NCBI GenBank assembly: GCA_963736875.1
Contig: CAVTQH010000003.1
Coordinates: forward strand, 65,756-129,755
Length of the DNA stretch: 64,000 nt
Reading direction: 5' to 3'
Source: Candidatus Amesbacteria bacterium
Lineage (GTDB): Bacteria > Patescibacteriota > Microgenomatia > CAZETR01 > Amesbacteraceae
The notes under the pieces were generated by a model. It was not told the origin of the DNA. It saw only the letters and a program-made list of their open reading frames with translations, and made no database searches. This document shows positions 31,460-34,400 of this stretch, in pieces. The position numbers and the translations under genes are program-made. Within the stretch, counting starts at the first letter, position 1. Each line of letters opens with the position of its first letter.

Positions 31460-34400
31460 ACTTCCGTAAGGCAGACAATGGATGCCTAATGGATGCATTG
31501 GCCGAAGAAGGACGCACATGGCCGCGAAAGTCGTCGGGGAGCTGCCAAGAAGCTTTGATCCGGCGGTGTCCGAATGGGGAAACCCCTCCATAATTAGTGG
31601 AGATCCCGATGTTATGTCGGGAGGGGTACCCCCTGAACTGAAACATCTAAGTAAGGGGAGGAAAAGAAATCAACGAGATTCCGTCAGTAGCGGCGAGCGA
31701 AAGCGGAACAGCCTAAACCCTGAGCGCAATCGAAGGGGGTTGCAGGGTCCGGCATATGGGATTTACCGAGGGTAGCAGAATCCTGTGGAATACAGGAGCC
31801 AAAGAAAGTGAAAGCCGTGTATGCGAAACCTGAAGTTACCTGAAGCCGAATGTTCCTAAGTACCATGAGGAACACGAAACCTTGTGGGAATCTGGGGCGA
31901 CCACGACTCCAAGGCTAAATACCAATGCATACCGATAGTGAACTAGTACCGTGAGGGAAAGGTGAAAAGAAGGGTGAAAACCTAGTGAAATAGAACCTGA
32001 AATTGTCTGCTAACAAACAGACGAGAGCTTCCTCGCGCAAGTCGATGGGTGATCGTCGTGCCTATTGAAGAATGAACCGGCGAGTTTTCGATTACTGCGA
32101 GTCTAATCTGGCAAAGCCAGAGGAGGCATAGTGAAAGCGAGTCTGAATAGGGCGATTTAGCAGTAGTTGGAAGACCCGAAACCAGGTGAGCTAACCATGA
32201 GCAGGGTGAGTCCCGACGAAAGTCGGGAGGAGGCCCGAACTCGTCAGAGCTGCAAATCTGTGGGATGACTTGTGGTTAGGGGTAATATGCCAATCGAACC
32301 TGGAGATAGCTGGTTCTCCCCGAAATATATTTAGGTATAGCGGTCTGTTAATCTTACTGGAGGGGTAGAGCACTGAATGGATGCAAGCATCGCAAGGAAT
32401 TTCATTCAATCAAACTCCGAATACTTATTAGTGTGTACTGGGCAGTCAGACATGACCGGGCTAAGCGCGTCGTGTCAAAAGGGAAACAACCCAGATTCTC
32501 ATCTAAGGTCTCTAAATGTATGCTAAGTGGTTAAAGGAAGTCATGATTTCTCAGACACCCAGGAGGTTGGCTCAGAAGCAGCCATCCTTTAAAGAAAGCG
32601 TAACAGCTCACTGGTCGATGGAAGTTGTGGCGCCGAAAATGAATCGAGGCTTAAGCATAGTACCGAAGATTAGAGATTGTCTCCGCATTTGATCGGAGCA
32701 GTGGTAGGGGAGCGTTCTGTACTGCAGTGAAGGTCACGCCGTAAGGCGAGGCTGGAGCGGTACAGAAGTGAGAATGCCGGAATGAGTAGCGTATTGAGTG
32801 GTGAGAATCCGCCACGCCGAATACCCAAGGTTTCCGACGCAACGTTCGTCGACTTCGGGTTAGTCGGACCTAAGGCGAGTCCGCCGATAGTGGGCGTAGC
32901 TCGATGTATAAACGGTTAATATTCCGCTACATGAGAAGTGTCGATTAAGACTCAAAGGGATGACAAAATGAGAGAATCGAGTCGTGTGTCAGTGAATGCG
33001 GCGTCTAAGCTGTCAAGATAGTGTAGATTGGAAAATCCGTTCTGGTGTTTAATTGAGCAGTGATGGGAAGTCTGATGCGCAATTGGCGGGCAACATAGAT
33101 AGCTTTTGTTTTCGAGAAAAGATCTCGTTGAGTGAGACATTTGTTATGCCGTACCGCAAACCGACACAGGTGGGCTGGTCGAGTAGACCAAGGCGATCGG
33201 GAGACAGGTAGTTCAAGGAACTCGGCAAAAAAACTGGGCGTAACCTTTGGGAGATGCCCTGCCCCGACGTATAGTCGGGGTCACAGCAAAAGATTACTCA
33301 GCGACTGTTTAACTAAAACACAGGTCTCTGCAAAGCCGAAAGGCAACGTATACGGGCTGACACCTGCCCAGTGCTCGGTAAGTTAAGAATGGATGGGTGA
33401 GATTCGCAAGGTGAAGCTGCTTGAATTGAAGCTCCGGTGAACGGCAGCAGTAACTATAACTGTTCTATGGTAGCGAAGTTCCTTGTCGGGTAAGTTCCGA
33501 CCCGCACGAAAGGCTAAACGAGTGAGTAACTGTCTTGAACTATCACCCGGCGAAATTGAAATGGCTGTGAAGATGCGGCCTACTTGCTACAGGACAAAAA
33601 GACCCCGTGGAGCTTTACTGTACCTTGGCACTGTTTCGGGTTCTGAAATTGTTTAGCATAGGAGGGATCCCGGCGCAAGTCGGGAGAAAGTGAAATACCT
33701 CTCGTTTCGGAATTGTCGAAACTTACCTGAGCTGGCTGGAAACGCCAGCAGAGACAATGTCTGGTGGGCAGTTTAACTGGGGAGGTTGCCTGCTAAAGAG
33801 TAACGCAGGCGTACAAAGGTTGGCTAAGCCCGGATGGAAATCGAGCAAGTCGTGCAAACGGCATAAGCGAGCTTGACTGTGAGAGCTGACAGGTCGAGCA
33901 GGTGCGAAAGCAGGTCGTTAGTGATCCTCCGATCTCGTCGTGGGAGGGTCCGGGCTTAACGGATAAAAGCTACCCCGGGGATAACAGGCTGATCGCCTCC
34001 AAGAGTCCATATCGACGAGGCGGTTTGGCACCTTAACCAAAAAGGTTATCGGGGTGCATGGCCAGTAATGGTCTTAGCAAGCCTAGTTATGTTTTGAACA
34101 ATGGTTATATTCTGACTCATATCGGAGGAATCCTTAAATTTGAACACTTAAGGACAATTCCGAGGGAAGTCGTCCCGCTTTTTAGGGGATTGACCCCGTA
34201 TCGACTTGTAGTTTCAAGACTACAGACTCTTCAAATCATTTGAGGGGTAAGACGTCAGCCCCGCCAACATCTGCGAAGTTGTGGCGGGTGAAGGAATAGT
34301 CAGCGCTTTGAGTAATCAAAGTATTTTTGAGCGATGTCGGCTCGCCCTATCCTGGAGGGGCAGTACCTTCCAAGGGTCCGTCTGTTCGCCGGTTAAAAGG

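Follow-up and report, generated by a model that had tools for sequence, protein, structure and literature searches.

Group I introns in the 23S rRNA genes of the Candidate Phyla Radiation (CPR, or Patescibacteria) have been surveyed by Tsurumaki 2024 (J Bacteriol, PMC11270868), who found that 82% of CPR 23S genes contain insertions, of which 45% were classed as group I by means of Rfam. In that survey, 222 group I introns in 23S were without an open reading frame (ORF), the sites lay preferentially towards the 3' end of the gene, ORF-bearing and ORF-less versions occurred at common sites, and several group I sites were described as 'not reported in any known bacteria' (PMC11270868). Its sites 23IS9-11 lie between 1952 and 2593, with coordinates given in figures only. 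The subject of this study is an insertion of 298 nucleotides (nt) at positions 34034-34331 of a 64,000-nt stretch of contig CAVTQH010000003.1 (GenBank assembly GCA_963736875.1, positions 65,756 to 129,755 of the forward strand), which is called the window below. Judging from its sequence and that of its relatives, we consider it, with a probability of about 0.92, to be an IA-like group I intron that lacks a homing endonuclease gene and follows U2500 of 23S (Escherichia coli numbering), in a host probably of the CPR/Patescibacteria type. It has the same host gene, and probably the same host group, as the CPR 23S introns of the above survey.

Several described introns come close to this element in site or in structure. 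The chloroplast intron Ft.rrl.6 of Floydiella terrestris (PMC2997540) is found at site 2500, has 381 bp, contains no ORF and is listed as IB. It agrees with the window's intron in the insertion site (E. coli 2500 precedes both), in a similar size and in the lack of an ORF, whereas its listing as IB differs from the IA-type P7.1/P7.2 of the window's intron, the comparison being one of published descriptions. The chloroplast 23S intron of Chlamydomonas humicola, which encodes I-ChuI, is also located at site 2500. Concerning structure, the td intron of phage T4 (IA2, experimentally self-splicing) has the same helix order as the window's intron, including a pair of additional hairpins that separate P7 from P3', and its core blocks are near-identical to the window's and closer still to those of the wider family; unlike the window's intron, it resides in the thymidylate synthase gene, is extended by P9.1/P9.2 and has the GIY-YIG endonuclease I-TevI within its P6. 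In bacteria, group I introns have been described in domains IV/V of 23S at L1917/L1931/L1951/L2593, cyanobacteria included, and often contain LAGLIDADG genes. Thermotoga, Coxiella and Simkania are among the hosts of introns at these sites. These sites differ from L2500, though one Coxiella endosymbiont has an 832-nt member of the L2500 family (L019, see below), and our literature searches on site 2500 (L2500) found no bacterial report.

The host gene of the insertion is a full-length bacterial large subunit (LSU) rRNA gene, matched in an Rfam scan over model positions 1-2925, and the rest of an rRNA set is present in the window with a 16S gene at 22314-23803 and a 5S gene at 34796-34912. In the local Rfam scan the LSU match breaks precisely at GGCACCU and restarts at CGAUGUCGG, with the gap unmatched. 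The 23S sequence ...GGUUUGGCACCU halts at 34033 and picks up as CGAUGUCGGCUC at 34332, the 5' exon sequence ...GGTTTGGCACCT running to 34033 and the 3' exon CGATGTCGGCTC starting at 34332; these are exactly the boundaries that an earlier note on this DNA had given. In E. coli 23S the U of GGCACCU is 154 nt upstream of the first A in AGUACGAGAGGACC, which we take to be A2654 in the standard numbering, and U34033 is therefore the equivalent of U2500 (the E. coli copy used is 6 nt shorter upstream, which gives U2500 the raw coordinate 2494). The same 154-nt offset bears out the placing in the earlier note of the insertion between the equivalents of U2500 and C2501, beside the peptidyl-transferase nucleotides. 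The bare fact of an insertion would by itself also suit an expansion segment kept by the mature ribosome, a reading we hold to be hardly credible, as the site lies between two universally conserved nucleotides of the peptidyl-transferase centre, homologous elements match the group I model and the insert contains guides complementary to both exons.

Every sequence and structure element of the group I splicing pathway is present in the insert and conserved under selection (Table 1). The folding z-score of the insert is -4.0, and a manual fold, as had been recommended, gives the P3-P9 core together with the P3/P7 pseudoknot, with compensatory changes in 39 homologues. The segment GGGTGC, which begins 18 nt into the insert, pairs with the exon GCACCT with U34033 opposite G34052, and the last nucleotide of the intron is a G, both as the earlier note had read them; the U·G pair of P1 at the 5' splice site is kept in 26 of 26 aligned sequences and in 13 of 13 distinct sequences. 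The block formed by J6/7 and P7 aligns with the AGACUA block of the Rfam group I model RF00028, by way of the relative L075, and with CUAACGACU of T4 td. L075 likewise links CGACU and GAAGGAAUAGUC with the RF00028 blocks AGACUA and GAAGAUAUAGUC, and both also align with T4 td. G34203-C34301 is predicted to be the guanosine-binding pair. We also observed that the hexamer UGAACA occurs twice, at 34095-34100 downstream of P2.1 and at 34141-34146 in L5. Most subfamily members keep both copies, which may serve the GUAA tetraloops L2 and L9 as receptors.

Table 1. Coordinates of the host gene, the intron and its structural elements, numbered from the first nucleotide of the window.
Feature	Position	Strand	Evidence or remark
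Host 23S rRNA gene, split by the intron	31456..34736	+	RF02541, 2065 bits
Intron, 298 nt, ORF-less	34034..34331	+	Exon break, local Rfam scan, relatives' profile, ORF search
5' exon strand of P1, GCACCU	34028..34033	+	U34033 = E. coli U2500 = 5' splice-site U of the U·G pair
P1 extension hairpin UAACC-AAAAA-GGUUA	34034..34048	+	Specific to the window's subfamily; ACC/GGU retained there
Guide segment UAUCG, P10 with 3' exon CGAUG (34332-34336)	34047..34051	+	AUCG/AUUG in 26/26 aligned relatives
Internal guide sequence GGGUGC, P1 3' strand	34052..34057	+	Pairs with 34028-34033
P2 hairpin GGCCA-GUAA-UGGUC, GNRA loop	34060..34073	+	4/5 pairs changed on both sides; 100% paired
P2.1 hairpin UAGC...GUUA	34075..34089	+	98% paired; A-U/G·U alternation
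P3 5' strand CUGAC	34112..34116	+	Partner 34254-34258; 4/5 pairs changed on both sides in the wider family
P4 (34122-27/34158-63), P5 (34131-37/34148-54) with loop L5	34122..34163	+	A-rich J4/5 GAA, J5/4 CAA
P6 (GGG/CCC), P6a (GUC/GAC), variable P6b hairpin	34164..34197	+	100% paired; GUC/GAC alternates with GUU/AAC, GCC/GGC
J6/7 GUAUC (34198-34202) and P7 5' strand GACU (34203-06)	34198..34206	+	Invariant in 39/39 homologues
P7	34203-06 / 34298-301	+	4 bp; invariant
P7.1 hairpin UGUAGU-UUCAAG-ACUACA	34207..34224	+	A-U in the window and L133 where 11 others have G-C
P7.2 hairpin	34226..34248	+	9/9 pairs changed on both sides
P3 3' strand GUCAG	34254..34258	+	Partner 34112-34116
P8 hairpin	34260..34288	+	Both-side changes in 6/7 pairs (26 sequences), 5/7 (14 sequences)
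J8/7 UGAAGGAAU (34289-34297) and P7 3' strand AGUC	34289..34301	+	Classical S element; GAAGAUAUAGUC in relatives
P9 hairpin GCUUUGA-GUAA-UCAAAGU, GNRA loop	34305..34322	+	5 pairs changed on both sides
Terminal G (omegaG)	34331	+	Last intron nucleotide; G in 14/14 subfamily members
3' exon strand of P10, CGAUG	34332..34336	+	C34332 = E. coli C2501

Guide pairing, guanosine attack, exchange for the terminal guanosine (omegaG) and exon ligation make up the textbook group I pathway, which the elements in Table 1 would follow as described here. In the pre-23S RNA, the guide GGGUGC (34052-57) would pair with the exon end GCACCU, with U opposite G at the splice site, and an external guanosine bound in the P7 pocket (G34203-C34301) would attack after U34033. 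UAUCG would pair with the 3' exon CGAUG to form P10, the terminal G34331 would move into the P7 pocket, and the 5' exon would attack after G34331, by which GGCACCU-CGAUGUCGG is restored and the 298-nt intron is released. Because the site is in the peptidyl-transferase centre, 23S from this gene would work only if spliced. A different fate of the insert would be that of an intervening sequence, which is cut by RNase III or another nuclease and left unligated, giving a fragmented functional 23S. Fragmented 23S with excised segments exists in bacteria and is suspected in CPR (Tsurumaki 2024, PMC11270868), and the intervening sequences concerned sit in the loops of helix 25 and helix 45 and have a long terminal stem (PMC11270868). 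The insert of the window, in contrast, follows U2500, within the core of the peptidyl-transferase ring, which is single-stranded; in the minimum free energy fold its ends pair with the guide and the exons and not with each other; and a full group I fold is present. We therefore regard excision as an intervening sequence as very unlikely.

The fold is backed by covariation in two alignments, one of 26 sequences and one of the 14-sequence subfamily with complete structure, each compared with a control in which the 3' partner columns were slid (by 1-3 in the larger alignment). In the larger alignment 91.5% of cells pair as against 37-42% after sliding, 28 of the 54 pairs are changed on both sides, and 0 of 500 shuffles reach the observed value; in the smaller one 96.1% of cells pair as against 33-47%, with both-side changes in 36 of 82 pairs. 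Compensatory changes are found in P2, P3, P4, P5, P6, P8 and P9, and both P7.1 and P7.2 covary. The pseudoknot helix P3 alternates among CUGAC/GUCAG, UCGGC/GCCGA and CUAGC/GCUAG, and the helix order P1-P2-P3-P4-P5-P6-P7-P3'-P8-P7'-P9 is backed by covariation. RNAalifold, run without a supplied structure, recovers P2, P2.1, P5, P6, P7.1, P7.2, P8 and P9.

Some other pairings were tried and rejected. For P7 formed by GACUAC (34219-24) and UAGUC (34297-301), the relative L082 has C in place of the U and, in compensation, G in place of an A in GUAGU; since both sides of GUAGU/ACUAC are changed there, 34207-24 is taken as the local hairpin P7.1 and P7 as using GACU at 34203-06. P6 as AAGUCG/CGACUU is weaker than GGG..GUC/GAC..CCC, which covaries. 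RNAalifold also proposed to pair the guide with P4' and GACGUC with the 3' exon; both pairings use invariant columns only and are not retained in the wider family.

Relatives of the insert were collected at the same site. An exon-only pattern, with a non-C required after GGCACCT, was searched in one genome per bacterial and archaeal species and gave at least 120 loci; among the matches listed there are about 36 true insertions at the identical site, nearly all of which start with TAA...ATCGGGGTGC. The hosts of the listed insertions are mostly Patescibacteria/CPR (Uhrbacteria, Gottesmanbacteria, Saccharibacteria, Amesbacteria, Kerfeldbacteria and others), with a few bins labelled Gammaproteobacteria or Polynucleobacter and one tick Coxiella endosymbiont, and the lengths are 288-514 nt for 25 listed relatives and 832-853 nt for 4. 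A second scan, of metagenome contigs with a core motif specific to the window's variant, gave 16 loci, and all 14 complete ones have the insertion at the same 23S site, with 272-422 nt and a final G. From the matches listed and the metagenome scan, 39 homologous same-site insertions were recovered, mostly from CPR/Patescibacteria. An nhmmer profile of 24 related inserts, from which the exons, the window and the window's closest relative were left out, matches one place only in the 64 kb, namely 34046-34319 (E=2.7e-20). The closest genome-derived relative among the matches listed is L082 from Ca. Amesbacteria, which has 87% mean column identity to the window in pairwise alignment with exon flanks included and 79.4% over the intron alone, while the 23S of the window is about 82% identical to its best locus.

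Further insertions and substitutions were observed in these 23S genes. L082 (at about 1035-1742) and L135 (at about 5190-5897) contain an extra insertion of about 706 nt at window-23S coordinate 2008 (about E. coli 1930), which the window does not have. Where the window has its intron, the 23S of L028 (4196-4644) has a 449-nt insert that starts with TAGATTTAAG, lacks the GGGGTGC guide and is apparently an unrelated element at site 2500. In L052, L098 and L088, which are metagenome-assembled genomes of a cyanobacterium, a member of Saccharimonadales and an actinomycete, C2501 is replaced by A or U with no intron present, and these could be genuine variants or assembly errors.

The connection with the described group I introns is given by the relatives and by T4 td. 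RF00028 matches L033 with 33 bits (E=8e-7) and L075 with 40.3 bits (E=4.2e-9), in both cases over the full model. In the alignment of L075 with the model, P1 starts at the exon junction, P3-P6, AGACUA, P8, GAAGAUAUAGUC and P9 fall as assigned, and P7.1/P7.2 are inserted relative to the model, between P7 and P3'. Additional helices in this position are the hallmark of subgroup IA in the Michel-Westhof classification. The comparison with T4 td used a td sequence whose 3' half is 100% identical to T4 records, aligned in an ORF-deleted form with the family members. The td blocks CAAUCCCGUG, CCUAACGACU and GGAGAUAUAGUCUGC align with CAAUACCGUG, CCGUAACGACU and AGAAGAUAUAGUCUGC of the family and with CAAUUCCGAG (also given as GACAAUUCCGAG), CCGUAUCGACU and UGAAGGAAUAGUCAGC of the window, and the core blocks common to td and the L2500 family are CAAU.CCG.G, C.UA.CGACU and GA.AUAGUC.G(C). 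The P7.1/P7.2 layout and the core blocks in common with td point to an IA-like subgroup. Patescibacterial introns of this subgroup have been met in tRNA genes, where a 2026 survey found nearly all group I introns to be IA and self-splicing in vitro. At the level of primary sequence, a blastn search of 50,697 phage records with the window's intron gave no match, and L075 matches phage introns over the 35-nt J8/7-P7-P9 block only (E 0.02-0.3).

Several points weigh against our interpretation. The earlier note had named a scan with RF00028 as a check, and here the expectation failed: neither the window's copy nor the compact subfamily member L131 gives a match, even at E<=10. L033 and L075 both remain under the RF00028 gathering score of 50 bits, which is the curated cut-off of a single model and not a structural criterion. 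As homologous copies do match RF00028, we take the miss as a matter of model sensitivity and not as counter-evidence to an intron, and since insertions in the CPR survey were classed by Rfam, to which the window's copy is invisible, an element of the window's type would fall there under the 'uncharacterized' insertions. In addition, P1 and P7 are invariant in the alignments, so covariation speaks neither for nor against these two helices; such invariance is expected of P1, whose guide is tied to a universal exon, and of P7, the catalytic pocket. P7 is also short, with 4 bp and, in place of the G·U or A-U of relatives, a U·U. The IA assignment comes from helix layout and td similarity, and splicing, its autonomy and its efficiency are what we infer from the family.

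These points bear on the sole serious variant among the rivals, in which the insert is group I by origin and does not splice autonomously, either needing a maturase supplied by the host or in trans or being a decaying relic in a non-functional 23S copy. Dependence on protein or impairment would be in keeping with the absence of an ORF from the intron, the short P7 with U·U at the fifth position and a copy too divergent for RF00028, and it has a precedent in Thermotoga neapolitana, where according to a review of bacterial group I introns the LAGLIDADG protein of the 23S intron is maturase-like and stabilises and activates that intron. A relic is opposed by the 14 distinct subfamily members, in hosts whose 23S differ by 14-25%, in which the core blocks are invariant and the helices are kept by compensation; decay is not expected because the core stays invariant and compensatory changes occur across such diverged hosts. 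Moreover, the host 23S is full length, and it is the single 23S gene seen within the 64 kb window. As a whole this variant is unlikely in our estimation, and an intron that splices as described above is preferred.

In the wider family the 3' end deserves a separate account. In 16 of 25 more distant ORF-less relatives (L120, L009, L036, L100, L033, L003, L047, L106, L109, L051, L099, L026, L020, L032, L043 and L030) the insertion ends in ...GUA (AUA in one case) directly before the exon CGAUGUCGG. These introns appear to end in A and not in the canonical omegaG, because only exact removal restores GGCACCU-CGAUG and because the 3' splice site is set at this point by P10. Splicing at the G at -3 would leave a UA insertion in the peptidyl-transferase centre of 23S. 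A group I intron without omegaG has been described in hexacoral mitochondria, where the exons flanking ND5-717 are nevertheless ligated in vivo (PMC6545197).

With regard to mobility, the earlier note had held the element to be too short for a homing endonuclease, which agrees with a longest ORF of 61 aa in the insert that gave no match in a Pfam search. On its coding content the window's copy cannot home alone. Three of the four long relatives (L005, L042 and L067) have, on the intron strand, a gene for a LAGLIDADG_2 protein of about 200 aa (Pfam E values from 3e-36 to 1.2e-44). The 832-nt family member L019 (6863-7694), which is located in a non-CPR host, the Coxiella endosymbiont of Ornithodoros, has no ORF of at least 80 aa and looks like a case of a decayed endonuclease gene. 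The identity of the window's intron to its subfamily is 68-88% and that of the surrounding 23S is 75-86%, the two running parallel; by inspection this parallel fits vertical inheritance, and the window's intron most likely came down vertically from an ancestor with relatives in which LAGLIDADG_2 genes are still present.

Other features of the window are recorded here for completeness. The 16S and 23S genes are separated by 7.65 kb, and the protein genes in between include an 854-aa ORF without a Pfam match, MarR and HlyD. The unlinked 16S and 23S, the predominance of CPR hosts among the relatives and the location of one relative on a 775-kb contig make a CPR/Microgenomates-like host likely. 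A tRNA-Ile(GAU) gene is found between 16S and 23S on the opposite strand (27534-27608), and a tRNA-Ala(UGC) gene stands immediately upstream of 23S (31273-31346). A MacB periplasmic core domain (29876-30463) and an FtsX permease domain (30592-31089), usually parts of one protein, lie in two ORFs with a 128-nt gap, which may reflect a frameshift or a pseudogene. GC skew is strongly positive in each 2-kb bin of the window from 1 to 64000 (+0.12 to +0.42), and the long ORFs up to about 46 kb are nearly all on the + strand.

As to the significance of the finding, group I introns in CPR 23S, ORF-less ones among them, and the use of site 2500 in organelles are already on record and unsurprising to specialists; what is mildly new is a sub-lineage which is invisible to the Rfam model and IA-like instead of IB. 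One may go further and regard the window's copy as part of a distinct IA-type L2500 clade that is endonuclease-less, vertically inherited and Rfam-invisible, with its removal being indispensable late in the maturation of the CPR 50S subunit, and suppose that many of the 'uncharacterized' CPR rRNA insertions would be group I introns in cryptic form, among them a sister clade able to splice with no canonical terminal G; this wider picture is in our view rather doubtful as a whole. For annotation, an uninterrupted 23S in this genome requires the removal of 34034-34331, which the standard Rfam group I model misses, and censuses of CPR rRNA introns based on Rfam probably undercount group I introns. 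The organism appears to have a single rRNA operon, in which case each of its ribosomes would depend on the ribozyme, and splicing would be a possible control point of ribosome biogenesis.

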